Notes: generated from the sequence alone by a model not told the origin. 44,620 nucleotides of DNA from an uncultured delta proteobacterium (GCA_903860995.1 CAIOSS010000784.1:1-44620); one strand, 5' to 3'. Shown: positions 11,334 through 29,573, counted from the first letter of the stretch. A program made the numbers and translations.

Positions 11334-11402
11334 CGTTGAAACGTCTGAACGTCTCAGCGCCTTATCGTCTGGACGACGAAGCGTCCGAGGGTCTAGACGT
11401 CT
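11334..11402. promoter_or_regulatory. Iteron cluster 2, upstream of parA (candidate partition site/operator)
   Basis: cgttgaaacgtct at 11334-11346 is identical to 5290-5302. It is followed by gaacgtct (11347-11354), atcgtctggacga (about 11364-11376) and the AGACGTCT palindrome at 11395-11402. The cluster ends 6 nt before the proposed parA GTG. Confidence 0.65.
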
Positions 11403-11407
11403 CGGCC

Positions 11408-12777: not shown

Positions 12778-14481
12778 GTGCTCCGCGCGACCACGCCGCT
12801 GGGGATGGCGGAGGCCATCGAGGTGGCCTTCGGCGAGGACGGGCGGCTGGTGATCTGCGGCGCGCGCATCGGCCCGATGGTCGTCGACGCCAGCGACCAG
12901 GCCGCGCCGCGCCCCTACCCCCCGACGGTGACGACCCTCGGCGCCGCAAAGTACCGGCGCTGCTCGCACGTTACGGTAGCGGGCTCGGTGGCCTACGTGA
13001 CGTTCCGGGCCGACTCGACCATGCCCTCGTACCTCGCGGCGGTGGAGCTGTCCGCCGCCCCGGCGGTCGTGGCGGTCTACAACGCGCCGGCCGGGCGGGT
13101 GTTCGAGGCCTCCGTCGCGCGCAACGGCCTGGTGATGGTGGCGATGCACCAGGACGGCCTGGGCGTGTTCGAGCGCGCGGGCGAGGCCTTCACGGAGCGC
13201 GCGACGCTCGGCGGCCTCACCAACGCCTACGGCCTCGCGCTCGACGGCAGCACGCTCTGTGTCGCCGACGGCGAGGGGGGCCTGGCCACGGTGGACGTCA
13301 GCGACCCGGGCGCCCCGCGGGTCGTCGGCCGGGTCGCGACCGGCGGGGTTGCGCAGTCGGTGGTGGTCGACCCCTCCAACCACATGGCGTACGTGAACGT
13401 GGGGGCCGGCGGCGTCGTGATCGTCGACGTGGCGCGCCCCGAGGCGCCGGCGCTCGCCGGTCGGGTCGCGACCGGTGGGACGGTCGGGCAGCTCTCCGTG
13501 GAGAGTGGGCGGCTCTACGTGGCGGCGTGGCGCGACGTGCGGGTGTACGCCCTCGACGACCCCCGACGCCCCGCCCTCGTCGGCGTCGCCCGGCCCGCCC
13601 AGAACGACCAGCTCGTGCGGGTGATGGGCGTCGCCGCGCACGGGGATGCCGTCGCGGTCGCCAACTGGAACTACCTACAGACGTGGCGCTTCCGTCCGGG
13701 GTACGCGGCGCCATACCTCGAGACCTCGCCCGAGCCGGTGGCGCTCGGCCGCACCGCCGTCGGCGCTACTACGGATGCCTTCTTCGTCGTCGAGAACCTC
13801 GGGCGCGCCCCGCTCGCGGGCCTCACCGCGCGGAGCGATGACCCAGCGTTCGAGGTGGATCCCGCGTCCCTGACCCTCGAAGCCGGTGAGAGCCGCGAAC
13901 TGCGTGTGCGCTACCGCGCGGCCGACCTGACGCCGCGCCGCGCGACGCTCGCGCTGCAAGGCGACGGCGACGCAGCGAACGCCGTCGCGGTCGAGCTGCA
14001 CGCGAACTCCGTCCACCTCACTGTAGGCGACCGTGCGCCCGACGAGGTCGTGCAGCGCGCCGACGGCTCGGAGTGGCGCCTCGCCGACCAGCGCGGCCAC
14101 GCGGTGCTGCTCACCTACTTCAGCACGTGGTGCCCGGTCTGCGGCCTCGACCTGCCCGACGTCGAGGTGAACGTCTGGCGTCGCTACCGCGCGCGCGGCC
14201 TCGAGGTGGTCGGCGTCGACCCGCCCCTGGCCACGTTCCGTGCGCCCGACACGCTCGCCGACGTGGCCGCGTTCGTCCGCTACCTGGGCCTCACCTTCCC
14301 ACTGGGGGTGTCGACGACGTCGGTCTACGACACCCTGCGCATGGGGCGCAGCGACGAGTCCGCCCCCTTCCCGCTGACAGTGCTCGTCGACCCGGCCGGG
14401 CGCATCGCCTACCTCGGCAACACCATCAATCCGGTCGCCCTCGACGCCGCCATCGAGCGCACACTGTCGGGAGCCCCGTGA
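12778..14481 (+). CDS. LVIVD-repeat beta-propeller + Ig-like + TlpA/redoxin (WCPVC) protein; N-terminus possibly disrupted
   Basis: This is a 567-aa ORF from GTG 12778. LVIVD-like units include GGLATVDVSDPGAPRVVG, GGVVIVDVARPEAPALAG and VRVYALDDPRRPALVG. A middle beta-sandwich-like segment follows. The C-terminal thioredoxin fold reads VLLTYFSTWCPVCGLDLP. An in-frame ATG 12661 plus a short hydrophobic peptide is cut off by TAG 12727-12729 (see findings). Confidence 0.8.
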   Translation: MLRATTPLGMAEAIEVAFGEDGRLVICGARIGPMVVDASDQAAPRPYPPTVTTLGAAKYRRCSHVTVAGSVAYVTFRADSTMPSYLAAVELSAAPAVVAVYNAPAGRVFEASVARNGLVMVAMHQDGLGVFERAGEAFTERATLGGLTNAYGLALDGSTLCVADGEGGLATVDVSDPGAPRVVGRVATGGVAQSVVVDPSNHMAYVNVGAGGVVIVDVARPEAPALAGRVATGGTVGQLSVESGRLYVAAWRDVRVYALDDPRRPALVGVARPAQNDQLVRVMGVAAHGDAVAVANWNYLQTWRFRPGYAAPYLETSPEPVALGRTAVGATTDAFFVVENLGRAPLAGLTARSDDPAFEVDPASLTLEAGESRELRVRYRAADLTPRRATLALQGDGDAANAVAVELHANSVHLTVGDRAPDEVVQRADGSEWRLADQRGHAVLLTYFSTWCPVCGLDLPDVEVNVWRRYRARGLEVVGVDPPLATFRAPDTLADVAAFVRYLGLTFPLGVSTTSVYDTLRMGRSDESAPFPLTVLVDPAGRIAYLGNTINPVALDAAIERTLSGAP

Positions 14482-15359
14482 GGCGCCCGACAGGCCGCCG
14501 GGCCGCCGGGCTCCTCCTGCTCCTCGCGCTGGGGGCCGGCTGCGCGCCCGAGCCCGGCGCTCTGGCCAGCGCCCCCCCGGCGGCGGGGGACGCGCCAGCG
14601 GCCCGCTGCGCGCCCGGCATGACCTGGGTCGGGATCGTCGAGGGCCGCGTCGTCGACGAGCGCGGCGAGGCGCTCCCCGACGAGCGCGTCGGCTTGTGCG
14701 GGGCGACGTGCTTCGGCTCCAACACCCGCTCCGACGGCCGCTTCTCGGTCCACGCCGACTTCTGCTTCCCCACCTCACGGGAGTTCCCGCAAGGCGCGGT
14801 CTTCGACGTGTACGGGCTCGGCTACCGCCCGGACGTGTCCATCGGCTTCAACCCCCGCGAGCTCGCGTCCCTCGAGCACGTCTCGCTCGGCGACGTGAGG
14901 CTGCCCGGGCTCTTCGGCGCGCCGTCGGTGCCCGTGCCGGGCGCGGCCGACCCGGCGCAGCGCCTCACGCTGCCCGACGGCTTCTCCCTCTCGATCGCGC
15001 CCGACAGCCTCGCGCTGGGGTTCAACAGCATCGCGCGCGTGAGCGCGGTGCGCGTCGAGCGCGCCGACCTGCCCCCCTTCCACGGTCGCGACGACGCGGG
15101 GTTGAGCGCCTTCTACGCGCTCACCCCGTCGGGCGCCCGCTGCAGGCGGCCGGCGCCCGCCACGCTGCCGAACGACGCGAGCCTCGCGGCCGGCGCCGAG
15201 GTCGAGATCGTGATGGTGGGTGAGCCCCTGGCGGGCGACGTCCTCCCGCCCGGGTCGATCGGCGTCGTCGACCGGGGGCGCGTGACGGCCGACGGCCGGT
15301 CGATCGTCACCGACCGCGGCCTGCCCTTTCTCGGGTGGGTGGGCTACCGCGTGCCCTGA
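14478..15359 (+). CDS. Lipoprotein with CarboxypepD_reg-like beta-sandwich segment
   Basis: GTG 14478 overlaps the upstream stop as GTGA. The N-terminus RRAAGLLLLLALGAGC is a lipobox. GRVVDERGEALPDERVGLCG...SDGRFSV resembles the carboxypeptidase regulatory-like domain. Track ORF 14073-15359 is in the same frame. Confidence 0.65.
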   Translation: MRRPTGRRAAGLLLLLALGAGCAPEPGALASAPPAAGDAPAARCAPGMTWVGIVEGRVVDERGEALPDERVGLCGATCFGSNTRSDGRFSVHADFCFPTSREFPQGAVFDVYGLGYRPDVSIGFNPRELASLEHVSLGDVRLPGLFGAPSVPVPGAADPAQRLTLPDGFSLSIAPDSLALGFNSIARVSAVRVERADLPPFHGRDDAGLSAFYALTPSGARCRRPAPATLPNDASLAAGAEVEIVMVGEPLAGDVLPPGSIGVVDRGRVTADGRSIVTDRGLPFLGWVGYRVP

Positions 15360-16960
15360 GCCGGCTCAGGGCGCGCGGGCCCGCGCACCCGGTAGAGCGT
15401 CACCCGCATGACCGGGTGGTTCCGCTCGAAATCGTGGACGTTGACGTCCTTCGAGAGCCCCGAGGTGAAGAACATGAACACCTCCCGCCAGCGCGCGGTC
15501 TGCATCACGGGCTGCAGCTCGAAGCGGCCGAACACGGCGTCGTAGGGGGCGGACGCCGGCCGGCCGAGGGCCCGCTGCGCGTCGCACTCCAGGCCGCAGA
15601 AGAAGTAGACGTCGCGGCGGGCGAGGTCGATCCGGGCGGGGTCATCGATGAACGACGGCCCGCGCGGGGAGGGGGCCTCGCCCCAGTGGAGGTACCTCTC
15701 GTAGTAGGCGCGCACGCGCTCGCCCTGGCGGTTGACCGCGAGGGGGATCTCCAGCACCTGGTCGCCGGGGCGGAGGAGGTGGGCGGCGCGGGCCACCAGC
15801 CGGTACTCGTACTGGTAGTCGAGGTCCTTGCGGATGTAGCTCGCCGACAGCCACGGCATCGACAGCACGAGGGCCATCGCGGGCGCCCACATCCACGGCC
15901 ACCGGATAAGGCGCGCCGCGTGCGCGGACATGATGATCAGGGGGTAGATGAGCTGCAGGAAGTACTTGGAGTTGCCCACGACGGTCTCGGACAGGGCGAC
16001 CGAGGTGATGGCCATCGTGCCGAGGTACCAGAGCGCCACGAGGGCCATGCCCTCAGGCATCGACGCGGCGAACACCACGGTGCCCAGGGCGAGGAGGGCG
16101 AGCCCCGGCCAGGAGACCACCCACGGGTTGAAGAGCACGTTGTGTGCGGAGAAGAAGAGCTGCTTGAAGCTGTGGAGGATCTGTACCGAGTGCCGCGGGC
16201 TCAGCATCTGGGTGCTGGAGTCGAGCACCCGGATGAAGCCGAGGTTGATCGCCAGCAGCGCGGCCAGGAAGGCCCAGAGCGCCGGCTGCGCGCGGACGTC
16301 GCGGCGGTAGAGCACCGCGAAGACGTAGAGCACCGGGAAGGACAGGAAGTTCAGCGGGCGGGTGAGCAGGAACGAGGGCAGGACGAGGAGCATCACGAGC
16401 CCGGTGGGGGCCTGCGCGCGCCAGTCGCTGCGCTTCATCGTGAGGTGGAAGAGCACGAACACCAGCGCGCCTAGGAAGAGCGAGCTGATCACCGGCGCCT
16501 CGGTGGAGGAGAGCTTGATGTGCATCGGGTGGCAGGCGAGCAGCCACGCCGAGAACCAGCTCATGGCCTTCCGCCCGAAGATGAGCTCGGTGTGCAGCGC
16601 GATGAGCAGCGGCGAGAGGACTGCCAGCGCCATGTTGAGCCCGAACGCCCCGCGGTAGGGGCTGAACGCGACCCCCACGAGGTGGTCCGCCGCGACGCTC
16701 AGCAGGACGATCACCCGCGGCAGCCGCTCGATGGCCGTGAAGTGGGTGTGCTCGTAGACGACGGGGTTGTAGAAATACCAGCGGAGCCCGACGGTCACCG
16801 CCAGGAGCGCGGCGAGGTGCAGGAGGTCGCGGGGGTCGCTGACCAGGCTGCGGCGGAACTGGTCGAGGAAGATGAGGAGGGCCAGCAGGAGGGCAGCCAC
16901 CTGCGCGAAGACCCAGGCGTCGCCGTTGAGGGCCTCGACAAACCAGGATGGGTAGTACAT
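15344..16960 (-). CDS. Polytopic membrane protein, divergent relative of the HENHH family (GT-C-like topology)
   Basis: This is a 538-aa ORF with many hydrophobic segments. LRWYFYNPVVYEHTHF sits at the position of LRW....HTLIHENHHGY in the three paralogues. The C-terminal soluble part contains PGDQVLEIPL, compared with PGDRFVTLPG/PGDRFVVLTG in the paralogues. It is the last gene of the 26413->15344 operon. Its GC content is lower than the window average. Confidence 0.8.
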   Translation of the reverse strand: MYYPSWFVEALNGDAWVFAQVAALLLALLIFLDQFRRSLVSDPRDLLHLAALLAVTVGLRWYFYNPVVYEHTHFTAIERLPRVIVLLSVAADHLVGVAFSPYRGAFGLNMALAVLSPLLIALHTELIFGRKAMSWFSAWLLACHPMHIKLSSTEAPVISSLFLGALVFVLFHLTMKRSDWRAQAPTGLVMLLVLPSFLLTRPLNFLSFPVLYVFAVLYRRDVRAQPALWAFLAALLAINLGFIRVLDSSTQMLSPRHSVQILHSFKQLFFSAHNVLFNPWVVSWPGLALLALGTVVFAASMPEGMALVALWYLGTMAITSVALSETVVGNSKYFLQLIYPLIIMSAHAARLIRWPWMWAPAMALVLSMPWLSASYIRKDLDYQYEYRLVARAAHLLRPGDQVLEIPLAVNRQGERVRAYYERYLHWGEAPSPRGPSFIDDPARIDLARRDVYFFCGLECDAQRALGRPASAPYDAVFGRFELQPVMQTARWREVFMFFTSGLSKDVNVHDFERNHPVMRVTLYRVRGPARPEPAQGTR

Positions 16961-16982
16961 CGCTCCCGGCCGAACGTATCAG

Positions 16983-19900
16983 CTAGCCGAGCCCGCTCCA
17001 CTCCAGGTTGCGCTCCATGATGGTGCGCTGCGTGGCGGGGCCCGTGACCGTGTAGCCATCGTTGACGAAGGGCTTGTACCGGGGGAGGTTGAGCGCGGCG
17101 AGTTCGGCCATGCGCTCGGGGGTGGTGGGCGCCAGCCGGGCATCGAGGGCCTGGAGGAAGGGCCCCAGCACGCGGATGAGCTGCGAGACCATCTGCGGGA
17201 GGTTGTCGGCGAGCTGGTTGCGGGTCTGGTGGGTGACCCGGTCGCTGAGGTTCTGGAGCGCGGGGCTGCGCCACGTGAAGGTGTACCGGGGCGAGGTGAC
17301 GAAGCCCTGCTGCCCGGAGGAGACCGGGAGCACGGTGAAGTCGACGGGGACGTTCACCAGGGAGAACTGGTCGGCCTCGTTCACGCGCCCGAGGATGTGC
17401 GGGATGTTCACCTGGAAGCGGTTGCGGGGGATGACCTCCGGGGGCGCCTCCACGTTGGGGCCGTCGAAGGCGTTGGAGCCCGCGGCGGGGCCCTGACCCG
17501 GGAAGATGGTCTTCGCGGTCTGCAGGTAGAGCTCGGAGATCTCCGCCTTGCGGTCGTGCCCGAGGGCCGAATACAAGAACATCAACAGGTAGAGGTCGAT
17601 GTTTCCGGCCACGCAGCGGGACTGGCCCTTGGCGCGGGTGATGGTCTTGTAGAAGCGCTGGGTCGACGCCACGATCTGCTGCTTCTTCTCCTCCCATCGC
17701 AGCCCGTCGCTCTCCCACTTGCCGCCCGGGATCTCGTTGAAGGCCTGGTCTTCCAGGAACTTCGTCGCGTCGGTGAGGCGGTCGATGCCGAACTTCTCGG
17801 GGTTCTTCCCCCAGGGGGAGGTGGCGATCAGGTAGTACGAAGAGACCGAGTAGAAGTCCGTGGTGTGCGCCGTGCGCTCCAGGAACTCCATGATGCGGTC
17901 CTGCTTGGTGCGGGTCTCGTGGGGCATCCCGGCGATGAGCAGCACGTGGTTCCAGATGCCGAGCTCGTGGCTGGCCTTGAGGAGCCGCTCGATGGTCTCG
18001 GTGTTGATCCCCTTGTTGATCATGCGGAGCATGGAGTCCTCCGGGGACTCCACCCCGAAGACCAGCCGCATCGCGCCGGAGCGCCGCATCTTCTCCAGCA
18101 GGTGCTCGTCGAGCGAGCGCATGTTGCAGCAGTCCGACCAGAGGATGTCGAGGCGCTGGTCGACGAGCGCGTCGCAGAACATCTCGGCGTACTTGTAGAC
18201 CGAGTTGATCTGCGTATTGAGGAAGTGGAAGTGCTTGCAGTTGTAGGTCTCGGACAGGAACCGTAGCCCCGCCACGGTCTGCGCGAGGTCTTCGCCTTCG
18301 ATCTTCGTATAGGCGTAGGAGCAGAACCCGCACGGGGCGTTGCAGCCGCGGATGAAGATGTGCGGCAGCACCACGATCTGGTCGTTCTCGAAGCGAGAGA
18401 ACTTCAGCATCGTCTCCTTGTCGAAGTGGAACCGCTTCATGATCTGGCGGCCGGAGTACCGGAAGCGGTCGACCAGCTTCGGGTCGAACACCGGCACCGC
18501 CGCCGGGATCGTGTCGTACGCGTGCGCCCCGGCCTCCGCCGCGCTCAGGTCGGTGCGCTCGAAATCCAGGGCCTTCGAGCCGGTCGGCGCGGGCACGTGC
18601 TGCACGCCGTCGATCACGGTGCGCTGGCGCATGAGCTGCCGCGCGGCGATGACCACCGGGGCCTCCGCCTCGGCGAGCCCGCCGGCCGCGGCCATCGCGT
18701 TGGCGCCGATGTTGGTGTGCTCGGGCACGCCCTTGCGCAGCCCCGACAGCGTCAGGAGGTCGCGGTCCATGGCCGTGTCCGGGGCCGCGCGCCCGAAACA
18801 GATGGAGCCGTCCCCGGAGCGGTAGATCACCCGCGGGCCGAGCGTGCGGTTGCGCGCGTGCTCGCCGCTCCAGCTGTTGCGGAACAGCTGGACGGTGATC
18901 GCCTCGGCCTGCCCGACGAAGGCGTAGTCGATGGCCGGACACTCCTCCATGATCCGCTGGTAGATCGCGGGCTGGGTGCTGTCCGGCGAGGCCTGGAGCC
19001 CGCCGATGATGATGGTGCACTTCGGGTATCGCTCGCGGAGCGCCTTGGCGAGGCACTGCCCCACGGCGGCCAGGGCCATGACGTTCACGATGCGGTCGAG
19101 CACGGCGGAGAGGGAGATGCCGAACACGGCCTTCTCGGTGACGCCGAGCACCACGAGCAGCTTCTCGGTCTGCGGGCGCAGCGTGTCGTCGGTGCCCGCG
19201 AGGAAGCCCGCGACCAGCGCATGGTCGAAGTACTGCCGGAGGTCGAAGGCGTTCGCGTCTTCGGAGCACGCCTCGCAGACCTGCGCGTCGAAGTCCCAGT
19301 GCTCGAGGTCGCGGTGCCCGAGGCGGAAGAGGTGCCCCATCAGCGTGGGCACCCCGAGCTTCACCATCTCGTAGTCGTGCTCCCAGTTCATCTCGAGCAC
19401 ACGAAACGTCGGACTGATGAAGCCGATATTCATGGAGTCACTCCCGGACGTGAGCAGCGAAGGGCGTCGATCGACCGCAGGCAGGTTCGCCCCGAGGAGC
19501 CGGCGGACGTGGCCGTCCATGGGCTCGCCGGGGTGCCGCGCCATGCCTCGGTGGAAGAAATCACGCAGGGCCGCGCCGCCGACGACGGGGCGCAGCTCCG
19601 ACTCGCCGTGCACGGCGACGTAGCGCCGGTCGAGCTTGGTGCACACCGACGACAGCGCGCAGCCCTCGCACACCGAGGCCGACCCGCGGCGGTGGTCGGA
19701 GGCGCGGCCGTCGATGAGCACCTCGCCGTCGCGGTTGATGGAGAGGATGTTCTCGTCCGTGAGGTCGGTCGCGAAGACGGCCTCCTCGCCCAGCAGGCAG
19801 AGCGGGAAGTGCGTCAGCGTCACCATCGCCCCGCGCGCCCGCGCAACGCGCACGGCCTCGCGCACGTACCCCATGAGCTCGGTGTAGCGGGCCACCAGGG

Positions 19901-20543
19901 CGGCGTCGGACCCCTCGGCGCCTTCGAAGCAGTGCTTGAAGCGCAGCGTGGGGATGCCCTCGTCGACGAGCATCGCGGCGATGGCCGGAAGCCGCGGGGC
20001 GTTGCGCGCGGTCACCACGGTGGTCGCGCCCAGCACGGGCCGGTACTTCGCGGAGAGCTCGCGCAGGTGGCCCATCCCCCGGCGAAACGCCGCGAAGGCC
20101 CCGGGCCGGGCCATCATGGCGTCGTGCATCTCGGCGCCGTCGCCGTGGATGGAGAAGTCGATGTGGGAGAGGCCTGCGGCGAGGGCCGCCTCGGTCCACG
20201 CGCGGCTCTTGAACACGATGCCGTTGGTGTTGATGGTGATGGACTCGTACCCGAGCTCGCGGCCGCGTCGGCAGAACTCCGCGAAGCGCGGGTGCACCGT
20301 GGGCTCGCCGCCGGTGAACCCGAGGATCGTGCAGCCCTCCGCCCGGGATTCGACCATGCGCTCGAGGATCTTCTCGTCGGTCGGGTTGAGCTCGGGGCGA
20401 TTGAGGATGTCGAGCACGCAGCAGAAGGGGCACGCCGCGTTGCAGAAGGTAGTCAGGCTGATCAGCGCCACGCGCGAAGGCCGCGGCGGGGGCGCTGCGC
20501 CGAGCACCTTCAGGTGGGTTGTCCGTGAAGAGTCTGCCGACAT
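16983..20543 (-). CDS. Double radical-SAM fusion protein: SPASM/twitch-type radical SAM + B12-binding-like (class B) radical SAM + unknown 250-aa tail
   Basis: This is a 1186-aa ORF. Core 1 is C34-x3-C38-x2-C41 (FCNAACPFC) with GFTGGEPT and a downstream C292-x2-C295-x5-C301. From M371 (MNIGFISP...) a Rossmann-like segment runs (...TIIIGGLQASP). Core 2 is C734-x3-C738-x2-C741 (IRGCNAPCGFC) with FGVESPEDSMLRMINKG. I do not recognise aa 930-1186. Confidence 0.85.
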   Translation of the reverse strand: MSADSSRTTHLKVLGAAPPPRPSRVALISLTTFCNAACPFCCVLDILNRPELNPTDEKILERMVESRAEGCTILGFTGGEPTVHPRFAEFCRRGRELGYESITINTNGIVFKSRAWTEAALAAGLSHIDFSIHGDGAEMHDAMMARPGAFAAFRRGMGHLRELSAKYRPVLGATTVVTARNAPRLPAIAAMLVDEGIPTLRFKHCFEGAEGSDAALVARYTELMGYVREAVRVARARGAMVTLTHFPLCLLGEEAVFATDLTDENILSINRDGEVLIDGRASDHRRGSASVCEGCALSSVCTKLDRRYVAVHGESELRPVVGGAALRDFFHRGMARHPGEPMDGHVRRLLGANLPAVDRRPSLLTSGSDSMNIGFISPTFRVLEMNWEHDYEMVKLGVPTLMGHLFRLGHRDLEHWDFDAQVCEACSEDANAFDLRQYFDHALVAGFLAGTDDTLRPQTEKLLVVLGVTEKAVFGISLSAVLDRIVNVMALAAVGQCLAKALRERYPKCTIIIGGLQASPDSTQPAIYQRIMEECPAIDYAFVGQAEAITVQLFRNSWSGEHARNRTLGPRVIYRSGDGSICFGRAAPDTAMDRDLLTLSGLRKGVPEHTNIGANAMAAAGGLAEAEAPVVIAARQLMRQRTVIDGVQHVPAPTGSKALDFERTDLSAAEAGAHAYDTIPAAVPVFDPKLVDRFRYSGRQIMKRFHFDKETMLKFSRFENDQIVVLPHIFIRGCNAPCGFCSYAYTKIEGEDLAQTVAGLRFLSETYNCKHFHFLNTQINSVYKYAEMFCDALVDQRLDILWSDCCNMRSLDEHLLEKMRRSGAMRLVFGVESPEDSMLRMINKGINTETIERLLKASHELGIWNHVLLIAGMPHETRTKQDRIMEFLERTAHTTDFYSVSSYYLIATSPWGKNPEKFGIDRLTDATKFLEDQAFNEIPGGKWESDGLRWEEKKQQIVASTQRFYKTITRAKGQSRCVAGNIDLYLLMFLYSALGHDRKAEISELYLQTAKTIFPGQGPAAGSNAFDGPNVEAPPEVIPRNRFQVNIPHILGRVNEADQFSLVNVPVDFTVLPVSSGQQGFVTSPRYTFTWRSPALQNLSDRVTHQTRNQLADNLPQMVSQLIRVLGPFLQALDARLAPTTPERMAELAALNLPRYKPFVNDGYTVTGPATQRTIMERNLEWSGLG

Positions 20544-20701
20544 GGTGGAGGGAGCCGCGAACGTAGCACGGCGCGCGTGCGAATCAGGGAGCGCCCTGGT
20601 TCGGCGCAGAGGCCCAGGGGATGCCCGCTCGCTACGGCGCTGCTGCCTGCTGGTCCCCTTCGGCGCCCGGAATGCCCGCGCGGGCCTTCTTCAGGGCCCC
20701 C

Positions 20702-21775
20702 TTAGGCCAGCTCCACCACGCAGTCGTCGCCCACCATCAGGCTGAGGGCGCCGGCGCGGGTGCTGCCCGGCCGCACCCGCACCCGACGGCCGAGGAGCGA
20801 GTCCTCCAGGCGCGCGGTGTCCTCGACCACGCAGCCCTCCATCAGCACCGAGTGGTCGACGCCCGAGCGCAGCACCGTCACCCCGTCGCCGATGCTGGTG
20901 TAGGGGCCGATGCGCGCGTCGGTCAGCCGCGCCCCCGCGCCGATGATCACCGGGCCGCGGATGGTCGAGCGCTCCACCACGGCGCCGGCCTCGATGCGCA
21001 CCCGGCCGCTCACCCGGCTCGCGGCGTCGACGAGCCCGAGGCGCGCGGGCACCAGCCACGAGTCGAGCACGGTGGAGTTGGCCAGGAGGAGGTCGTCCTT
21101 CTTGCCGGTGTCCAGCCACCAGGAGCCGAGCACGTCGTGGTGGATGTGCTCGCCCCGCGCCAGGATGCGCGAGAGCGTGTCGGTGATCTCCAGCTCGCCG
21201 CGCGCCGACGGGGCGATCTCCGCGATGGCCGCGAACACCGACGGGCGGAACAGGTACACCCCCACCAGCGCGAGGTCGCTCGGCGGGTCGGCGGGCTTCT
21301 CGACCAGCCGGGTGATGGCCCCGTCGGCGTCGAGCACGGCCACCCCGAAGGCCCGCGGGTCGTCGACGGCCTTGAGCATCACCGAGGCGCTCCAGGCGGG
21401 CTCGGCCCGGAAGGCGTCCACCGCCGGGCGGATGGAGTCGCCGATGAGGTTGTCGCCCAGGTACATGCAGAAGTCGTCGTCGCCCAGGAAGGGCCGCGCC
21501 GTGAGCGCCGCGTGCGCCAGCCCGGCGGGGCGCTCCTGGACGATGTACGTGAGCCGGGCGCCCCAGCGGGCGCCGTCGCCCAGGGCCGCGCGCACCTCCG
21601 CGCCCGTCTCCGGCGAGATGATCACGCCGATGTCGGTGATGCCCGCGTCGACCAGCTTGTCGACGACGAAGAACAGGATCGGCCGGTTGGCCACGGGCAC
21701 CAGCTGCTTGGCGCCGGTGTACGTGATCGGCCGCAGCCGCGAGCCCGCGCCGCCCGCCAGGACGAGGCCCTTCAC
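20702..21775 (-). CDS. rmlA: Glucose-1-phosphate thymidylyltransferase, long form with C-terminal left-handed beta-helix
   Basis: GTG 21775 overlaps the rmlB stop as GTGA. The N-terminus is VKGLVLAGGAGSRLRPITYTGAKQLVPVANRPIL. Hexapeptide-like repeats occupy the last 90 aa or so. Track ORF 20702-21826 is in the same frame. Confidence 0.85.
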   Translation of the reverse strand: MKGLVLAGGAGSRLRPITYTGAKQLVPVANRPILFFVVDKLVDAGITDIGVIISPETGAEVRAALGDGARWGARLTYIVQERPAGLAHAALTARPFLGDDDFCMYLGDNLIGDSIRPAVDAFRAEPAWSASVMLKAVDDPRAFGVAVLDADGAITRLVEKPADPPSDLALVGVYLFRPSVFAAIAEIAPSARGELEITDTLSRILARGEHIHHDVLGSWWLDTGKKDDLLLANSTVLDSWLVPARLGLVDAASRVSGRVRIEAGAVVERSTIRGPVIIGAGARLTDARIGPYTSIGDGVTVLRSGVDHSVLMEGCVVEDTARLEDSLLGRRVRVRPGSTRAGALSLMVGDDCVVELA

Positions 21776-22833
21776 GCGCCGCCCCCGAGGCCGAGGCGCG
21801 CGCGGTCGTGGGCGCGGGCGTCGCACCAGCCGCGGTGCGCGAGGTACCAGCCCACGGTGGCGCGGAGGCCCGCGTCGAGCGAGTGCGCGGGCGACCAGCC
21901 GAGGGCGTCGCGGGCGCGCGCGGCGTCCACGGCGTAGCGGCGGTCGTGGCCGGGGCGGTCGCCGACGAAGCGGATGAGGGCGCGGTAGCCGCCGGGCGGG
22001 GCGCGGAGGCCCGCCGCGGGCGCGAGCTCGTCGAGCAGCGCGCAGAGCGACTCGACCAGGGCGAGGTTGGTGCGCTCGGCGCCGCCGCCCAGGGTGTAGG
22101 TGACCCCGGGGGCGCCGCGCAGGGCTGCGGCCAGGAGGGCGTCGCAGTGGTCGTCGACGTAGAGCCAGTCGCGCACGTGCTGCCCGTCGCCGTACACGGG
22201 CAGCGCGCGGTGCTCGACGGCGTTGAGGATCATCAGCGGGATGAGCTTCTCGGGGAACTGGTACGGCCCGTAGTTGTTCGAGCAGTGGGTGGTCACCACC
22301 GGGAGGCCGTAGGTGTTGGCCCAGGCCCGCGCGAGGTGGTCGCCGCCGGCCTTGGAGGCCGCGTAGGGCGAGTTGGGCGCGTGGGCCGAGCCCTCGTGGA
22401 AGCGCCCGCCGGCGCCGAGGGAGCCGAAGACCTCGTCGGTGGACACCTGCACGAAGCGGAACCCGGGCGGGGCGGCGCCGGACCCGACGTAGCGCCGGGC
22501 GGCCTCGAGCATCGCGTGCGTGCCGAGCACGTTGGTGCGAAGGAAGTCCGTCGCGTCGTCGATGGAGCGGTCGACGTGGGACTCCGCCGCGAGGTGGAGC
22601 ACGGCGTCGGGGCGGTGCTCTCGCAGCAGGGCCTCGACCAGGGCGCGGTCGCAGACGTCGCCGCGCACGAAGCGGTGCCGCGGGTGCCCGGCCACGTCGC
22701 GGAGGTTGTCGAGGCTGCCGGCGTAGGTGAGCAGGTCGAGGGTGACCACGGAGCAGGCGTCGTCGCGCAGGGCGCGGCGCACGAGGTTGGCGCCGATGAA
22801 GCCCGCGCCGCCGGTGACGAGCAGGGCGGTCAC
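21772..22833 (-). CDS. rmlB: dTDP-glucose 4,6-dehydratase
   Basis: This is the 3' 1062 nt of track ORF 21772-23373. GTG 22833 overlaps the upstream stop as GTGA. Motifs are LVTGGAGFIGANLV, HLAAESHVDRS, STDEVFG, YAASKAGGDHL and HCSNNYGPYQFPEKLIP. Confidence 0.9.
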   Translation of the reverse strand: MTALLVTGGAGFIGANLVRRALRDDACSVVTLDLLTYAGSLDNLRDVAGHPRHRFVRGDVCDRALVEALLREHRPDAVLHLAAESHVDRSIDDATDFLRTNVLGTHAMLEAARRYVGSGAAPPGFRFVQVSTDEVFGSLGAGGRFHEGSAHAPNSPYAASKAGGDHLARAWANTYGLPVVTTHCSNNYGPYQFPEKLIPLMILNAVEHRALPVYGDGQHVRDWLYVDDHCDALLAAALRGAPGVTYTLGGGAERTNLALVESLCALLDELAPAAGLRAPPGGYRALIRFVGDRPGHDRRYAVDAARARDALGWSPAHSLDAGLRATVGWYLAHRGWCDARAHDRARLGLGGGA

Positions 22834-25430
22834 GCGGGCACCACCCCGAAGGCCGCGAGCGCGCCGAGGCCCGGCGCCCGCCGCGCGAGCCGCGCCACCC
22901 GCTCGGGGCCGCGCAGCACCTCGAGGGCGCCGTCGGTCAGGCGCAGCCCGTCGCCGAGGGAGAGCACCGCCCCGAGGGCCCGCTCGAAGCCGTCGCGCAC
23001 GGCGCGGTCGTCCGTGGGCGACACGCCACCGACGACGCCGCCGTAGCGCAGCACGTCGGCGTCCTGGCGCGCCTCGGTGAGCACCACGAGGCGGGCGTGG
23101 TCGAAGAACAGCACCGGCCGCGCGAGGGCCTCCCGCAGCGCCGCCGCCGCGGCGGGCTGGGCGCGCGCCAGCAGGTCGAGCACGGCCTCGGCCTGGGCCA
23201 CCGCCCGCGGGCACCCGTACGAGCACGGGAACGACGGCAGCACGTACGCGAAGAGGTTGTTGAGCACCGGCGCGAAGGGCAGGCCCAGCCGCCGGGTGCG
23301 CGCGAGCGCGGCGTAGCGGATGGCCGTGTTGTTGGAGCGGTCGGGGAGGGCGGCGAAGGCCTCCACGCAGCACGGCGGGTACCCGAGCATGGCGCCCATC
23401 TCGGCGAGGTGCTCGCTCGGGCCGCGCGGGTCTTCGTAGATGGCGCGGGCGCGAGCCACGAGGGCGGGGTCACGGGAGAGGAAGAGGTCGACGTGGGTGC
23501 CCTCGCCGGGCGCCGCGGGGGCGCGGCCGCGCACGTCGGTGACGGCGTCATACGTGAACAGGTAATCGACCCGCGCGGCGTGGTGGTCGGCGAAGCGCGC
23601 GGCGAAGGCCTCGGCCTCGGCGCGGGGGAGGGTGAGGTAGAGCGCGGGCTTCAGGCCGTGCTCGTAGGCGAGCACCTCGAGGCGCGGGACGTCCACCCGC
23701 AGCGGGTCGGCGGGGAGCGGGGGAGGGTCCGCGGGGAGCCCGTCGGGGGCCTCGAGGCCGAGGGCGCGGAGGGCCTCGGCGGGGGTGCGGGCGTCGCGGG
23801 CCGCGGCGCTGACGCGCTGCCAGCCGGCGCGGTCGTCGGCCGGGGGCGGGCCGATGACGACGGCGGGCGAGGGGCGGGCGGGAGGGCGCGCGGGCGAGGG
23901 GGAGGGCGCGCCGTCGGCCCCGGGGGAGGTGTGGCGGATCTGCTGGAAGCGCGAGCCGAGCGAGCGGACGACGTCGCGGGCGAGGTCGGGGACGGGGTCG
24001 CCCCAGCGGTCGGGGCGGCGCTCGAGGAAGCGCACGATCTCGCGCAGCATGCGCACCTCGTCGTGGCGGCCCACCACGCGGAACATCGCGTCGTGGACGC
24101 CGTACGCCCGGTCGGTGGCGAGGTGCTGGAAGCGCCACGGGACCTCGGCCTCGTAGCCGTAGCGCCGGGCCGAGTCCATGGCCTCGTAGGGGAAGCGCTC
24201 GGCCAGCAGGCCCTCGTGCTTGGCTTTGTAGAAGAGCGCGGTGTCGGGGTAGAGCCGGAGCTTGGCGCGGGTGACCTGGCCGCGGAACTCCTGGAGCCCG
24301 ACGCGCTCGGCGGCGTCGAGGTTGAGGACGATGTCCGAGAGCTCGGTCCAGGGGTTGTAGAGGATGAACCCGAAGGCCGCGGGGGTGTCCGAGTAGCTCT
24401 TGGGGTAGCGCCGGCGGAGGCGCCGGCACTCGAGCACGGTGCGCTCGTTCTGCTCGACGGTGACGCCCTTGTTGTAGAGGTCGAGGTCCTTCTGCGAGAG
24501 GCTCTCCAGGCCCACCAGGAAGAGCAGCACCCGGTGGCCGTGGCGCTCGGCGCCCTGCCGCGCGCGCTCCATCACCGGCATCGAGCCGAGGAACCAGTCC
24601 GCCCGCGTCTCGATCAGCACCTCCATCGGGTGCGCGGCGCGCTCGCCGAGCCGGTCGATGAACTGCACCAGGTAGGGGAAGGGGTTCTGGTCGTTGAGCT
24701 GGATGCGCGCGGTCTCGGGCGCGTGATCGAGCAGGTGGTCGAGCTGCGCGAGCACCGACGCGAGCACCTCGCCGGACGGGCGCCGCGGGATGCCGCCGGA
24801 CGCGCAGAAGCTGCAGCCGCGGAGCACGACCTTCTCGTCGGGAAAGGGGACGTCGCGGAAGTGGGGGTTGTCCCGCACGCTCTGCCCGTAGGCGCACCCG
24901 GCGCTGCCGTGCACCACCGCGGGCCGGTCGGGCCGCTGGTCGCGGCCGACGCCGATGCGCACCAGGTTGTCCCGGGCGTGCGCCCGGGTGAGCTCCATCT
25001 GCGGCAGCCGGAACATCGCCTCGGTGACGGGCTCGCCGGCGGCGACGGCGCGGGCGATGGCCGCGAAGGTGTCGACCTGGTTCAGCGGGAAGGCGTGGGT
25101 GGTGCCCGGGAAGGCCACGCGCGGGTCGCCGAGGTAGATCCAGGTGACGTCCGGGAGCTGCGTCCGGAGGCGCTGGAAGACGGCCTCGCTCCACAGGCGC
25201 ACGTACGCGCAGACCCGGTAGCGACCCTGGAGCTGCGCGACGAGGGCGTCGATGGCGGAGAGGTCGTCGGCGTCGGGAGCGTCCGAGGCGGGGAGCGTCG
25301 CCTCGAAGAGCTCGTTGTGGACGCCCTGCGAGGTCAGCGCCGCGGAGAGCGAGGGGATGAGGTCGTCGTGGATGAAGTTCCGGCTCTGCGCAACCTGGAA
25401 CAGCAGGATCGCCGCGGCGGGTTCGACCAT
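22830..25430 (-). CDS. B12-binding-like / radical-SAM-like N-terminal half (non-canonical Cys spacing) fused via Pro-rich linker to a PPCC...PCx3C domain
   Basis: This is an 866-aa ORF. The N-terminal half has C179-x26-C206-x2-C209 (GCAY...LRGCSFCAS) and a TIM-barrel-like VGLESLSQKDLDLYNKG. The linker spans aa 500-580 and is rich in P and A. The C-terminal half has MLGYPPCCVEAF (C687, C688) and SFPCSYGC (C736, C740). It is homologous to ORF 31610-32338. Confidence 0.8.
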   Translation of the reverse strand: MVEPAAAILLFQVAQSRNFIHDDLIPSLSAALTSQGVHNELFEATLPASDAPDADDLSAIDALVAQLQGRYRVCAYVRLWSEAVFQRLRTQLPDVTWIYLGDPRVAFPGTTHAFPLNQVDTFAAIARAVAAGEPVTEAMFRLPQMELTRAHARDNLVRIGVGRDQRPDRPAVVHGSAGCAYGQSVRDNPHFRDVPFPDEKVVLRGCSFCASGGIPRRPSGEVLASVLAQLDHLLDHAPETARIQLNDQNPFPYLVQFIDRLGERAAHPMEVLIETRADWFLGSMPVMERARQGAERHGHRVLLFLVGLESLSQKDLDLYNKGVTVEQNERTVLECRRLRRRYPKSYSDTPAAFGFILYNPWTELSDIVLNLDAAERVGLQEFRGQVTRAKLRLYPDTALFYKAKHEGLLAERFPYEAMDSARRYGYEAEVPWRFQHLATDRAYGVHDAMFRVVGRHDEVRMLREIVRFLERRPDRWGDPVPDLARDVVRSLGSRFQQIRHTSPGADGAPSPSPARPPARPSPAVVIGPPPADDRAGWQRVSAAARDARTPAEALRALGLEAPDGLPADPPPLPADPLRVDVPRLEVLAYEHGLKPALYLTLPRAEAEAFAARFADHHAARVDYLFTYDAVTDVRGRAPAAPGEGTHVDLFLSRDPALVARARAIYEDPRGPSEHLAEMGAMLGYPPCCVEAFAALPDRSNNTAIRYAALARTRRLGLPFAPVLNNLFAYVLPSFPCSYGCPRAVAQAEAVLDLLARAQPAAAAALREALARPVLFFDHARLVVLTEARQDADVLRYGGVVGGVSPTDDRAVRDGFERALGAVLSLGDGLRLTDGALEVLRGPERVARLARRAPGLGALAAFGVVPA

Positions 25431-25435
25431 CGCGG

Positions 25436-26413
25436 TCAGCGAAACTCCGCGCGGAACGACAGCCCGGCGGAGGCGTTGACCTGCACCAGCGTGTCGCCCA
25501 CGAGCACCCGCGACTGCCGCTGGCTCACCACCGTCAGGCTGCCGGAGCTGTTGTTCTCGGGCGCCGAGAGGAAGCGCCCGAGCACCGACGGGGGAATCTC
25601 CCCGACGCCGCGGGTGCCATCAAAAGAGCACGACGCCGTGATCTCCTCCAGCCAGGTGGGCGTGGTGCCGTTGGCGGGCCGCTGACCCAGGGAGGCGACC
25701 ACCCGCTCCGACGTGGGCTCCCAGCGGAGCGCGAGCGGCGAGCGGCGCTCGATGTAGACGATCTGGTTGATCGCGTCGGGCACCATCGGCCCGATGTACC
25801 GCAGCGGCAAGGGGAACAACACCGGCGCCTGGAACGGCTCCCGCAACCCGCCTCCCACCGCGCCCACACAGATCTCGTCGTCGGCCCTCCAGCGCGCCCC
25901 GGCGGTGCCGTCCGGGCGCGCGTAGGTGCCGTTCGCCTGGGGCATGAGCGCCGCCACCTCGGCCGTCGGGTCGATGCGGTCGCGCACCGTGACGCGCCCG
26001 AGGCTCCAGCCCGTGAGGGGGGCGCCCATGTCGCCGATGTGGTCCGGCGGCGGACGGCAGTCGCGCACCACGCAGGGCCCATCGGTGACCGGCGCGCACC
26101 GTTCGGCCTCGTGGGCCACCACGTTGAACACCGACGCGCCGTGGCCGAGCTGCGGGCCGCGGGACACCTGGCTCACGCTGACGAGCACCGATCGGGCGCC
26201 GACCGCCGCGCTCACCGCGGTGCCCCCGAGCACCGGGCAGGTGGAGGCCCCACCGCCCCCGCACTCCACCCAGGAGCGGCCCTCCCCGCACCCCGAACAG
26301 TTGGTGCCCACGCACCCCGCGTCGGGCTCGACCGAGGTGCTGCCGCAGCGGCCGAGCAGCAGTCCGCCGGTCAGCGTCAGCGCCACTTGCAGGTTCGTCC
26401 GCGCGGTCGTCAT
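25436..26413 (-). CDS. Exported Cys-containing hypothetical protein (first gene of the operon)
   Basis: This is a 325-aa ORF from ATG 26413. The N-terminal hydrophobic segment is LQVALTLTGGLLLGRCGS, followed by the Cys-rich stretch CVGTNCSGCGEGRSWVECGGGGASTC. Its stop lies 5 nt before the start of 22830-25430. I recognised no domain. Confidence 0.65.
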   Translation of the reverse strand: MTTARTNLQVALTLTGGLLLGRCGSTSVEPDAGCVGTNCSGCGEGRSWVECGGGGASTCPVLGGTAVSAAVGARSVLVSVSQVSRGPQLGHGASVFNVVAHEAERCAPVTDGPCVVRDCRPPPDHIGDMGAPLTGWSLGRVTVRDRIDPTAEVAALMPQANGTYARPDGTAGARWRADDEICVGAVGGGLREPFQAPVLFPLPLRYIGPMVPDAINQIVYIERRSPLALRWEPTSERVVASLGQRPANGTTPTWLEEITASCSFDGTRGVGEIPPSVLGRFLSAPENNSSGSLTVVSQRQSRVLVGDTLVQVNASAGLSFRAEFR

Positions 26414-28469: not shown

Positions 28470-28559
28470 GTGGTCCCGGCGCCGACGCTACGCCACGCAG
28501 CGCGCGGCGGAAACAGGGCGGCTCGACCAGCACGCCGCTGCCACGGTACGAATGGTCCG

Positions 28560-29573
28560 ATGTCACTCTGCGTGGTCACAGGCGCCCCCGGCTGGTTGGG
28601 GACGACCCTCGTCCAGGCCCTCCACGCGGGGGCGGCGTTCGGCGCGTTTCGCACCGAGGCGCGGCGGGTGCGCTGCGTGGTGCAGCCGGGCGTCGACGCG
28701 GGCCGGCTCGAGCGCCTCGGGCCGGGCGTGGAGGTCGTGCGAGCCGACCTGCGCCACCGCGAGATGCTGCGCGGCGTCTGCGACGGCGCGACGAGCGTCT
28801 TCCACGCGGCGGGCATCGTCCACCCGCGCCGCGTGTCCGACCTCTACGACGTCAACGTGACCGGCACGCGCAACCTCATCGACGAGGCCATCGCCGCGGG
28901 CGCGAAGCGGTTCGTCCTGGTGAGTTCGAACTCCCCCGCGGGGTTGAACGACTCACCCATGCACCTGATGACCGAAGACGATCCGCCGCGGCCGTACCTG
29001 GGCTACGGGCTCTCGAAGCTCCAGGCGGAGTGGGCCCTGAACGACGCGCACCGCGGTGGGCGCATCGAGGGGGTGATCCTCCGGCCCTGCTGGTTCTACG
29101 GGCCCGACCAGCCCGAGCGGCAGTCGCGGTTCTTCCGGATGATCCAGGGCGGGCACCCCATCATCTTCGGGCGCGGCGACAACCTCCGGAGCATGAGCTA
29201 CATCGACAACACCGTGCAGGGCCTCCTGCGCGCCGAGCGCGTCGCGGCCGCCGCCGGGAAGACCTACTGGATCACCGACCGCCGCCCGTACTCCTTCATC
29301 GAGATCATCGAGACGGTCGCCAAGGTGCTGGGCGTCCGCGTGCAACCGCGCTACCTGCCCCGCGCCAGCTCCGACGTCGCGCGCCTCTGCGACTCGCTCC
29401 TGCAGATGGTGGGCCTCTACAACCAGGAGATCCACGTCGCGGGCGAGCTCGCCGCGTCCATCGCCGTGAGCATCGAGGCCGCGCGCCGCGACCTCGGCTA
29501 CGACCCGGAGATCGAGCTCGAGGAAGGCATGCGGCGCTCCGTCGAGTGGTGCCGCAAGAACGGCCAGCTCTAG
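28560..29573 (+). CDS. NAD-dependent epimerase/dehydratase (extended SDR)
   Basis: ATG 28560 lies within track ORF 27408-29573. Motifs are VVTGAPGWLGTTLV (GxxGxxG) and YGLSKLQAE (YxxxK). The gene is divergent from paralogue 2 across a 90-nt gap. Confidence 0.85.
   Translation: MSLCVVTGAPGWLGTTLVQALHAGAAFGAFRTEARRVRCVVQPGVDAGRLERLGPGVEVVRADLRHREMLRGVCDGATSVFHAAGIVHPRRVSDLYDVNVTGTRNLIDEAIAAGAKRFVLVSSNSPAGLNDSPMHLMTEDDPPRPYLGYGLSKLQAEWALNDAHRGGRIEGVILRPCWFYGPDQPERQSRFFRMIQGGHPIIFGRGDNLRSMSYIDNTVQGLLRAERVAAAAGKTYWITDRRPYSFIEIIETVAKVLGVRVQPRYLPRASSDVARLCDSLLQMVGLYNQEIHVAGELAASIAVSIEAARRDLGYDPEIELEEGMRRSVEWCRKNGQL

Follow-up and report, generated by a model that had tools for sequence, protein, structure and literature searches.

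Does a densely packed gene run in which dTDP-sugar activation (dTDP: deoxythymidine diphosphate) appears side by side with several radical S-adenosylmethionine (radical-SAM) domains represent a conserved pathway, and on which class of substrate would its enzymes act? This question is raised by a stretch of 44,620 nucleotides from an uncultured delta proteobacterium (GCA_903860995.1, CAIOSS010000784.1; the whole stretch is termed the window in the following), the host lineage of which is Polyangiales, i.e. an uncultured soil myxobacterium. The genes in question occupy positions 15344-26413. According to the comparison with related loci, what is conserved is a multi-radical-SAM/DUF483 gene set restricted to Polyangiales; the rmlB-rmlA pair is a recent cassette insertion, and the exported protein at the upstream end of the run is incidental. 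As a possible function it is tentatively proposed that a sugar linked to a nucleotide or lipid is tailored by radical chemistry and then transferred at the membrane by a GT-C-like protein. The range is filled by six open reading frames (ORFs), listed here together with the largest spacer between them:

25436-26413, minus strand: G1, 325 aa, signal-peptide-like N-terminus, approximately 11 Cys (ORF and frame)
22830-25430, minus strand: G2, 866 aa, N-terminal alpha/beta domain, radical-SAM-like core and C-terminal DUF483-like domain
21772-22833, minus strand: rmlB, dTDP-glucose 4,6-dehydratase, 353 aa, GTG start (TIGR01181)
20702-21775, minus strand: rmlA, long form, glucose-1-phosphate thymidylyltransferase, 357 aa (TIGR01208)
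20544-20701, minus strand: rmlA-G5 intergenic spacer of 158 nt, unique to the window arrangement
16983-20543, minus strand: G5, 1186 aa, two fused radical-SAM enzymes (PF04055)
15344-16960, minus strand: G6, 538 aa, polytopic, at least 8 transmembrane (TM) helices and a soluble tail of approximately 160 aa (TM scan)

A reading made beforehand from the DNA alone (the sequence-only reading) had counted seven genes in this range, a wrong number, given that its own gene list names six; the candidate for a seventh, G0 (26790-28469), lies outside the range, 376 nt upstream of G1. All junctions given in that reading were confirmed by reading the sequence, and the operon-like packing is real: G1 and G2 are separated by 5 nt (CCGCG), stop and start codons overlap as GTGA both between G2 and rmlB (22830-22833) and between rmlB and rmlA (21772-21775), and the gap of 22 nt between G5 and G6 (16961-16982) contains a GGGAG Shine-Dalgarno-like motif. 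The run is bounded by a convergent plus-strand lipoprotein gene that ends at 15359. The assignments of RmlB and of a long-form RmlA hold, as both proteins pass the curated equivalog cut-offs (RmlB versus TIGR01181: 434.4 bits, cut-off 365.1; RmlA versus TIGR01208: 419.5 bits, cut-off 320.25, with the whole model length covered); RmlA consists of an NTP_transferase domain (PF00483) and hexapeptide repeats. The product of a standard rmlB-rmlA pair is dTDP-4-keto-6-deoxy-D-glucose. A complete dTDP-L-rhamnose pathway was not found: the Pfam scan of the 26 main ORFs gave no RmlC-type match, and the three short-chain dehydrogenases/reductases (SDRs) of the window reached 26-33 bits on the rmlD model (cut-off 224).

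The G2-rmlB-rmlA-G5-G6 block recurs only in two loci (L015 and L016; related loci are denoted by L numbers) of approximately 96% DNA identity. These derive from independent metagenome assemblies, and an assembly artefact was rejected on the grounds that the same block is present in both. Colinearity with L015 stops exactly at the start codon of G2, upstream of which a Uma2 gene and a DUF483 gene are located instead of G1. The relatives at 80-88% DNA identity (L001, L005, L007, L012 and L013) have G5 and G2 a few kb apart, the usual order being G5, an opposite-strand radical-SAM gene with a small membrane protein gene, and then DUF483-G2. In L001, L005, L007 and L008 the four genes for G5, G2, stand-alone DUF483 and the small membrane protein are found together; stand-alone DUF483 is syntenic with G2 in these four loci and in L015, and lies directly upstream of G2 in relatives. 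G6 follows G5 in L012, L013, L015 and L016, not in L001. The distant loci L003, L008, L009, L010, L011 and L018 contain G5-like and G2-like genes with extra radical-SAM genes, the gene order being different among all relatives examined. All 53 G5 homologue clusters originate from Myxococcota/Polyangiales metagenome-assembled genomes or metagenomes. The boundaries 15344 and 26413 thus cut through a larger gene set, whose further members in the window are described below.

The rml genes behave differently. They are absent within 10 kb in the relatives of 80-88% identity, and the DNA synteny with these relatives breaks at 20519-20529 (just inside G5) and at 22842-22845, i.e. at the edges of the rmlBA segment. 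A reverse test was performed with the 80 closest loci of long-form RmlA on metagenome contigs (83-51% identity): rmlB adjoins rmlA in 50 of them, while genes of the G5, G2, G6, DUF483 and G0 types occur within 8 kb in none (0/80). Downstream of the closest rmlA (83%) lie genes for a methyltransferase, a Wzx-type flippase and a GT4-like glycosyltransferase, a combination commonly seen in polysaccharide loci. From the absence in the relatives, the breaks at the segment edges and the result of the reverse test it follows that the conserved unit excludes rmlBA. The co-localisation in other genomes, on which the sequence-only reading had made its proposal depend, is therefore limited to strains of approximately 96% identity as regards the link of rmlBA to the radical-SAM genes, whereas the radical-SAM/DUF483 set itself does co-localise. 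An exported Cys-containing protein had also been claimed as an operon member; this applies to the window strain, but G1 is not conserved, as its homologue is absent from every fetched locus including the region upstream of G2 in L015, and no Pfam or NCBIfam match was obtained for it.

These data bear directly on the explanation that rmlBA is a mere passenger in a recombination-prone island without functional tie to G2 and G5, its dTDP-sugar being destined for an envelope polysaccharide or for PMT_2-like transferases and the tight spacing being a result of compact high-GC packing. It would be in line with the different gene order in each relative examined, with the coincidence of synteny breaks and cassette edges, with the Uma2 gene inserted upstream of G2 in L015, with the tyrosine recombinase and partition-type ParA encoded in the window (86-87% identical homologues in L011), and with the location of rmlBA beside methyltransferase, flippase and glycosyltransferase genes elsewhere. 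However, the arrangement is kept in the three sampled strains (window, L015 and L016) despite the renewed rearrangement upstream, sugar-type genes recur around the gene set in other lineages, and the overlap of the G2 stop with the rmlB start implies translational coupling; we therefore consider a pure passenger role unlikely.

As regards the edges of the run, an insertion at 554-1129 of L015, the Uma2-family endonuclease gene, separates the DUF483 gene from G2, which in a strain of 96% identity indicates a very recent rearrangement at the upstream operon edge. Upstream of G5, a giant Cys/Gly-rich repeat protein is directly adjacent in L001 (1-9864) and L013 (1-6241); it comprises 5521 to at least 6308 aa with 21% Gly, 7.6% Cys and repeats of the type CRxSAGxCDxxExCxGxxxxCPxD, and its position is taken by G2-rmlBA in the window. 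Co-transcription of the run may be supposed from its spacing. The scan of the gene run revealed neither a sigma-70-like promoter nor a convincing terminator; the four terminator-like sites are all intragenic and their number is near chance expectation. The 158-nt spacer could be the site of an internal promoter; a sigma-70-like promoter, a T-tract terminator and an Rfam match were not found in it. A riboswitch or other RNA element and a tRNA integration site were likewise considered, and none was found in the Rfam and tRNA searches.

The radical-SAM and DUF483 proteins are composed of the following parts:

19524-20477, minus strand: N-terminal radical-SAM domain of G5 (approximately aa 23-340), CNAACPFC and a C-terminal CX2CX5C (twitch-like)
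17754-19436, minus strand: B12-class radical-SAM part of G5 (approximately aa 370-930), C734-x3-C738-x2-C741
24804-24896, minus strand: codons of the invariant C179…C206-x2-C209 of G2 (alignment of 17 sequences)
22833-23693, minus strand: DUF483-like domain of G2 (aa 580-866), motifs GYPPCC and PCSYGC (PF04467, below cut-off)
31610-32338, minus strand: stand-alone DUF483-like protein, 242 aa, paralogue of the G2 C-terminus (PF04467, 21.1 bits)

The predicted 1186-aa double radical-SAM fusion, G5, was borne out: PF04055 is matched in two stretches (120.2 bits), so that each half belongs to the superfamily, and two CX3CX2C motifs are present. In some homologues the two halves are separate genes. 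The N-terminal domain resembles HxsC4 most closely among the NCBIfam models (96.5 bits, cut-off 500), followed by HxsC (58.2, cut-off 267.9) and BlsE (53.7, cut-off 400), and BlsE is its best match among solved structures (E 1e-12), followed by GDGT-MAS, SkfB and PqqE. Near residue 300 it contains CEGCALSSVC (CX2CX5C); a weak SPASM match was obtained in the homologous L011 fusion, and the SPASM model PF13186 matched neither G5 nor G2 in the Pfam search. The best NCBIfam matches of the C-terminal part (PhpK, a C-methyltransferase of peptides that are made by the ribosome and then modified after translation (RiPPs), ApyD, HpnJ and BchE) are all below cut-off and all belong to B12-binding radical-SAM families; the nearest solved structure is AprD4 (weak), and the stand-alone homologue P0045 is named "B12-binding domain-containing radical SAM protein" by NCBI. 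A B12-binding Pfam match was not found at E<=0.01. Its C734-x3-C738-x2-C741 motif is nearly invariant among homologues, and the B12-class part is followed by a conserved tail of 260 aa; the C-terminal half is unusually conserved. Because the subfamily matches lie far below the curated cut-offs, only the class can be assigned to the radical-SAM proteins and no chemistry.

With respect to nucleotide composition, the window has a GC content of approximately 74%, and the third-codon-position GC of the six ORFs (0.93-0.97) is so strong a signal that it fixes the coding frames. Overall GC drops to 0.67-0.69 at 16001-20000 (G5 and G6), versus 0.72-0.78 in the rest of the window. Since the values of G5 and G6 by codon position (0.64-0.66, 0.43-0.47 and 0.95-0.97 for positions 1, 2 and 3, respectively) confine this drop to positions 1 and 2, amino-acid composition and not foreign codon usage is its cause.

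The 866-aa protein G2 had been described as B12-like/radical-SAM-like. In its radical-SAM part this description is supported by distant members among its 55 homologue clusters, which carry PF04055, and by Cys residues C179, C206 and C209 (Cx26CxxC), which are invariant in an alignment of 17 sequences down to 24% identity; on the other hand, G2 itself contains no CX3CX2C and gave no PF04055 match in the Pfam search. The three residues probably bind a [4Fe-4S] cluster as a non-canonical variant of the CX3CX2C motif. The best solved-structure match of the G2 family profile is the B12-dependent radical-SAM enzyme OxsB, at weak significance (E 0.05). The C-terminal "PPCC domain" of the sequence-only reading is a real domain and is now identified as DUF483-like. 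The gathering cut-off of PF04467 (DUF483; 25 bits) is reached neither by G2 (21.7 bits) nor by the stand-alone protein, but both match the same region of the model, and the stand-alone protein is 31-33% identical to G2 aa 585-750.

A DUF483-like profile built from these two sequences retrieved 1493 representative proteins at E<=1e-3 from a library of 1.84 billion proteins. PF04467 was matched by 44 of 60 sampled proteins (best 6e-9); five of the 60 are fused to a GFO/IDH/MocA dehydrogenase and four to a radical-SAM domain. Membership of G2 and the stand-alone protein in the extended DUF483 family is evident from the shared GYPxCC…PCxxxC motif, with invariant G, P, CC and C-x3-C, a pattern that resembles a metal or Fe-S site built from four cysteines. 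Where radical-SAM domains are fused to DUF483 in other proteins, they are HxsC/HxsC4-like, i.e. of the subtype of the G5 N-terminus, and the dehydrogenases fused to DUF483 or G2-like proteins are of the inositol 2-dehydrogenase or UDP-GlcNAc 3-dehydrogenase type. The AlphaFold2 model of the stand-alone protein has a pLDDT (predicted local distance difference test) of 88. A Foldseek search with it revealed no characterised relative: among solved structures the best was 2guk (E 6e-3), itself a protein without known function, and all proteins matched in the set of viral predicted structures are uncharacterised; as a consequence, no function can be transferred to DUF483 from its structural matches. 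The sequence search of solved structures with the stand-alone protein gave nothing useful.

The further members of the gene set and their neighbours in the window are the following:

26790-28469, minus strand: G0, 559 aa, approximately 10 TM helices, weakly PMT_2-like (GT-C; PF13231)
28470-30610, plus strand: two extended SDR genes (approximately 28500-29573 and 29570-30610), divergent from G0
30658-31263, plus strand: small membrane-anchored protein, 201 aa, accompanying the DUF483 gene in relatives
32470-34629, plus strand: second double radical-SAM protein, approximately 719 aa, CDLRCAWC and CNISCGFC (translation, PF04055)
37631-38674: third SDR gene (Epimerase/3Beta_HSD Pfam matches)

The window thus contains five radical-SAM-type domains (two in G5, a non-canonical one in G2 and two in the 32470-34629 protein) and two DUF483 four-Cys domains. 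The gene at 32470-34629 is divergent from the stand-alone DUF483 gene; its product shows MoaA- and twitch-like NCBIfam matches below cut-off, and homologues occur in L007 and, as a fusion with a G2-like protein, in L011. Homologues of the small membrane protein adjoin DUF483 in L001, L005 and L007 (E 1e-10 to 1e-16). The SDRs match Epimerase and 3Beta_HSD in Pfam, with HpnA, OleD and SdmB as best NCBIfam models, all below cut-off.

Given the nature of these last matches, the gene set might be supposed to tailor a membrane lipid of the hopanoid, sterol, ether-lipid or olefin type, to which the sugar genes would add a polar head group. Besides the three SDRs, the B12-class domains (matching HpnJ, HpnR and the ladderane-lipid radical-SAM family), the N-terminal domain of G5 (matching tetraether synthase Tes/GDGT-MAS) and the integral membrane location of G6 and its paralogues would agree with such a role. 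All these matches, however, are far below curated cut-offs and reflect a generic similarity at the superfamily level, and genes for squalene-hopene cyclase, polyprenyl synthase, olefin (ole) and glycerol-ether formation were found neither in the window nor in the related loci; a lipid substrate is thus very unlikely.

Several other neighbours are mentioned for completeness. Four FG-GAP/ASPIC proteins are encoded in the window. The gene at 7376-8248 (minus strand), flanked by those of a PMT_2-like paralogue and an FG-GAP/ASPIC protein, encodes an MXAN_6577-like Cys-rich exported protein (NF041328, above cut-off with 128 bits) in which CGGCG…C motifs are repeated. The second double radical-SAM gene is immediately followed downstream by a DUF1592/DUF1588/DUF1585 (PSD/PSCyt) and DUF1552 (HXXSHH) pair (34691-37575, plus strand). 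Converging on G6 are the genes of an exported LVIVD-repeat/Ig-like/AhpC-TSA (thiol peroxidase-like) protein (12778-14481, plus strand) and of the lipoprotein mentioned above (14463-15359, plus strand); the same pair follows G6 in L012 and is therefore part of the conserved neighbourhood. The tyrosine recombinase and the partition-type ParA (NF041546, above cut-off) are encoded at 4050-5279 and 11333-12100 (both plus strand). They are 86-87% identical to the products of the L011 genes at 7123-9767, compared with only 56% for the G5-like protein of L011, and a ParA homologue occurs near G5-G6 in L012 and L013 (beside G6 in L013). The two genes are possible markers of an island that is mobile or undergoes rearrangement; alternatively, ParA could serve in localisation.

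Another explanation is that the radical-SAM/DUF483 proteins are cytoplasmic protein or peptide maturases that introduce thioether or C-C cross-links or methyl groups into the nearby Cys-rich and FG-GAP exported proteins, while rmlBA and the GT-C-like proteins glycosylate the same proteins separately. Consistent with it, a Cys/Gly-rich protein of more than 5500 aa directly precedes G5 in L001 and L013 (the 10 kb that precede G5 in L008 also have a Cys/Gly-rich look, judged by composition only), G5 of L010 is preceded by four mutually paralogous proteins (655-681 aa), of which one has an FG-GAP match in Pfam, another FG-GAP protein being encoded downstream, and the window contains the FG-GAP/ASPIC and MXAN_6577-like proteins just described; furthermore, the radical-SAM domains of the G5 N-terminus and of the DUF483 fusions are nearest to HxsC/HxsC4 and also similar to PqqE, SkfB and sactipeptide maturases. 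Yet the HxsC4 score is less than a fifth of its cut-off (96.5 versus 500 bits), His-Xaa-Ser repeats are absent from all six frames of the window, and a small precursor-like ORF conserved across the loci was not found. A PqqD-like or RiPP recognition element (RRE) extension is lacking in G5, the cluster motif of which starts at residue 34 (no dedicated RRE search was run). The exported neighbours vary between loci, G1 is not conserved, and proteins of this kind are abundant in myxobacteria. In addition, the fusions to GFO/IDH/MocA dehydrogenases suggest small-molecule substrates, which makes the maturation of proteins a doubtful function for this gene set.

The proposed transfer at the membrane depends on G6, which was earlier called GT-C-like. 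Only 8 G6 homologue clusters were obtained among 5.8 billion; their many invariant residues include EHTH, HTE and CHPMH, and E70-H71-x-H73 is located in the first loop. No Pfam family was matched and the sequence search of solved structures was empty; but the layout of G6 fits this class, and comparisons of low significance point in the same direction. In the hhalign comparison of the G6 family with the PMT_2-like paralogues (E 0.0015, probability 16%), 356 columns were aligned colinearly, with RW..YEHTH opposite RW..HENHH and EYRL…PGDQ opposite EYRL…PGDR. The AlphaFold2 model of G6 is poor (pLDDT 50.7, nine sequences behind it); its top five Foldseek matches are all oligosaccharyltransferase complexes, which because of their non-significant values (E 0.2-0.45) are used as a hint only. 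Taken with these limits, G6 is possibly a GT-C-like transferase.

The match of the PMT_2-like proteins to the GT-C class is itself weak: G0 scored 22.5 bits against PF13231 (cut-off 26.1), its paralogues lower or without match, and a profile search of solved-structure sequences with the paralogues found nothing. These paralogues are encoded at 38690-40558 and 8968-10710 (both minus strand), the mutual identity being 39-59%. All three proteins share the loop motif IHENHHGY, and each gene stands in a minus-strand run that also encodes Cys-rich or FG-GAP/ASPIC exported proteins, which points to a glycosyltransferase family for surface proteins, its members having dedicated substrates.

The sugar reading, the best supported of the explanations considered, though no more than possible, may be formulated as follows. 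G2-rmlB-rmlA-G5-G6 would be a recently assembled operon, formed when the rmlB-rmlA cassette was inserted among radical-SAM/DUF483 genes; RmlA and RmlB would supply dTDP-4-keto-6-deoxy-D-glucose, the precursor of a 6-deoxyhexose, in step with the tailoring enzymes in this lineage. The radical-SAM/DUF483 enzymes would then tailor a sugar by methylation, rearrangement, dehydration or decarboxylation while it is carried on a nucleotide or on polyprenyl phosphate, and G6, as a protein distantly related to the PMT_2-like GT-C paralogues, would transfer the product to an envelope acceptor. Of the earlier proposal, the sugar role thus remains plausible in view of the recurrent sugar genes and the dehydrogenase fusions, while the rml link is not conserved; a "C-branched or C-methylated" sugar as the product is pure conjecture.

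A sugar substrate is favored by the rmlBA insertion itself with its stop/start overlap to G2, by the nearest solved relatives of the G5 domains, BlsE and AprD4, which act on a nucleoside-sugar and an aminoglycoside, respectively, and by the fusions of GFO/IDH/MocA dehydrogenases to G2-like and DUF483 proteins elsewhere. SDR genes are located beside DUF483 in L008, an SDR and a deacetylase gene near G5-G6 in L013, and GT2 genes of the PpgS/AglJ/ArnC-like polyprenyl-phosphate-sugar synthase type in L011 and L014. Divergent from a 43%-identical G6 homologue, L014 contains at 6464-11623 a B12-class radical-SAM gene (AprD4/HpnJ-like), the GT2 gene, genes of two 50-aa single-TM proteins and a polysaccharide deacetylase gene. 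This set looks like an Arn-like modification of a lipid-linked sugar with an additional radical-SAM step; the similarity of its radical-SAM protein to the G5 C-terminal domain is at class level only (approximately 20% identity). The earlier caveat that no polyprenyl-phosphate GT2 is encoded in the window stands, although such a GT2 adjoins the G6 homologue in L014.

These points have to be balanced against a number of others that weigh against the proposed pathway. Above all, the findings on rmlBA in the relatives, at the synteny breaks and in the RmlA loci characterize the coupling of dTDP-sugar activation to radical-SAM enzymes as a strain-level event and not as a conserved design; since the linkage is limited to very close strains, the indication that it gives of the function of the radical-SAM enzymes, useful as it is, remains weak. 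Moreover, the run could be divided by the 158-nt gap into two transcription units, and the window lacks an aminotransferase, RmlC, RmlD, a polyprenyl-phosphate GT2 and a flippase. The radical-SAM subfamily matches are too far below the curated cut-offs for a chemistry to be assigned, G6 is without Pfam or solved-structure match and has a poor model, and sugar genes are common in myxobacterial genomes. From all these data we infer a sugar as the substrate class in a tentative manner only.

A known deoxysugar, O-antigen or antibiotic pathway was rejected as an explanation, as only RmlA and RmlB reach family cut-offs and nothing comparable was found in the literature. The statement of the sequence-only reading that the gene combination is undescribed proved right, insofar as literature searches revealed neither a characterised pathway with this combination nor a description of the radical-SAM/DUF483 gene set. 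The durable and more novel result is this Polyangiales-restricted multi-radical-SAM/DUF483 set with its two unusual enzyme layouts. If the set acts on sugars, it would provide the first functional context for DUF483, a family of at least 1493 representative clusters that is often linked to radical-SAM enzymes and also present in phages, and would add to the radical reactions known for sugars on a nucleotide or lipid carrier; two candidates for biochemistry would be the fusion of a twitch-type to a B12-class enzyme and the Cx26CxxC core fused to a four-Cys domain. The rmlBA insertion offers a first concrete substrate hypothesis, dTDP-4-keto-6-deoxyglucose. Should rmlBA be only a passenger, a lineage-restricted, uncharacterised gene cluster of moderate interest remains. 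A more far-reaching proposal, according to which the DUF483 four-Cys domain is a dedicated partner of HxsC-like and B12-class radical-SAM enzymes in a new multi-radical-SAM pathway, formed by G5, G2, the stand-alone DUF483 protein and the second double radical-SAM protein and leading to a branched or ring-rearranged sugar, attached to envelope proteins or polymers by a new GT-C-like family (G6), with the rmlBA insertion as the first direct pointer to the substrate class, is quite unlikely at the present state of evidence.

Among the known systems, the DesII/desosamine type of pathway is comparable in that RmlA/RmlB-type enzymes generate dTDP-4-keto-6-deoxyglucose, the product is reworked by a radical-SAM enzyme, and the activation and radical-SAM genes are located in one operon. 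The differences are that DesII has a single domain and depends on a prior aminotransferase, an enzyme missing in the window, and that the rmlBA link of the present locus is not conserved; with TIGR04426, the model of DesII, a match (22.9 bits, cut-off 450) was obtained for the second double radical-SAM protein alone. The nearest class to the G5 C-terminus and to G2 is that of the class B radical-SAM enzymes with sugar or phosphonate substrates (GenK/GenD1, Fom3, PhpK and OxsB) together with the B12-independent diol dehydratase AprD4. Cobalamin-dependent radical-SAM enzymes alkylate or rearrange unactivated carbons. Compared with this class, however, the scores are far below the cut-offs, G2 has Cx26CxxC in place of CX3CX2C plus a DUF483 domain, and the fusion partner in G5 is a second radical-SAM enzyme, of twitch type; a domain for cobalamin binding was not detected by Pfam. 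BlsE, the cytosylglucuronate decarboxylase of blasticidin S biosynthesis, is likewise twitch-type, acts on a nucleoside-linked sugar and is the best solved relative of the G5 N-terminus, but differs in gene context and fusion partner (model score 53.7 versus 400 bits).

The Arn system (ArnC/ArnD/ArnE-F/ArnT) and the mycobacterial PpgS with its GT-C partner are resembled by L014, in which the G6 homologue stands beside a PpgS/ArnC-like GT2, a deacetylase and two TM proteins; G6 and the three PMT_2-like paralogues also have the architecture of GT-C proteins, in which a soluble tail comes after a multi-TM domain. Unlike these systems, the window contains no GT2, deacetylase or flippase, and G6 matches no GT-C Pfam family; a radical-SAM enzyme is not known from the Arn or PpgS systems. 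The Hxs system provides the best matches of the G5 N-terminus and the DUF483-fused radical-SAM domains, i.e. HxsC and HxsC4; membership in it was rejected on the basis of the scores (HxsC4 96.5 versus 500 bits, HxsC 58.2 versus 267.9 bits) and of the absence of a His-Xaa-Ser repeat peptide from the window. The single paper found to mention the DUF483 domain (bioRxiv 10.1101/2024.08.14.607894) describes a conserved module of a radical-SAM protein, a DUF483 protein and a protein of unknown function in the Thermus phages Cumys and phiMa and in prophages, and notes fusions of DUF483 to radical-SAM and methyltransferase domains. The genetic pairing of DUF483 with a radical-SAM enzyme is common to both cases; but while the phage modules are small and have tentatively been tied to DNA modification (bioRxiv 10.1101/2024.08.14.607894), the present locus is cellular and combines two DUF483 domains and five radical-SAM-type domains with sugar genes.

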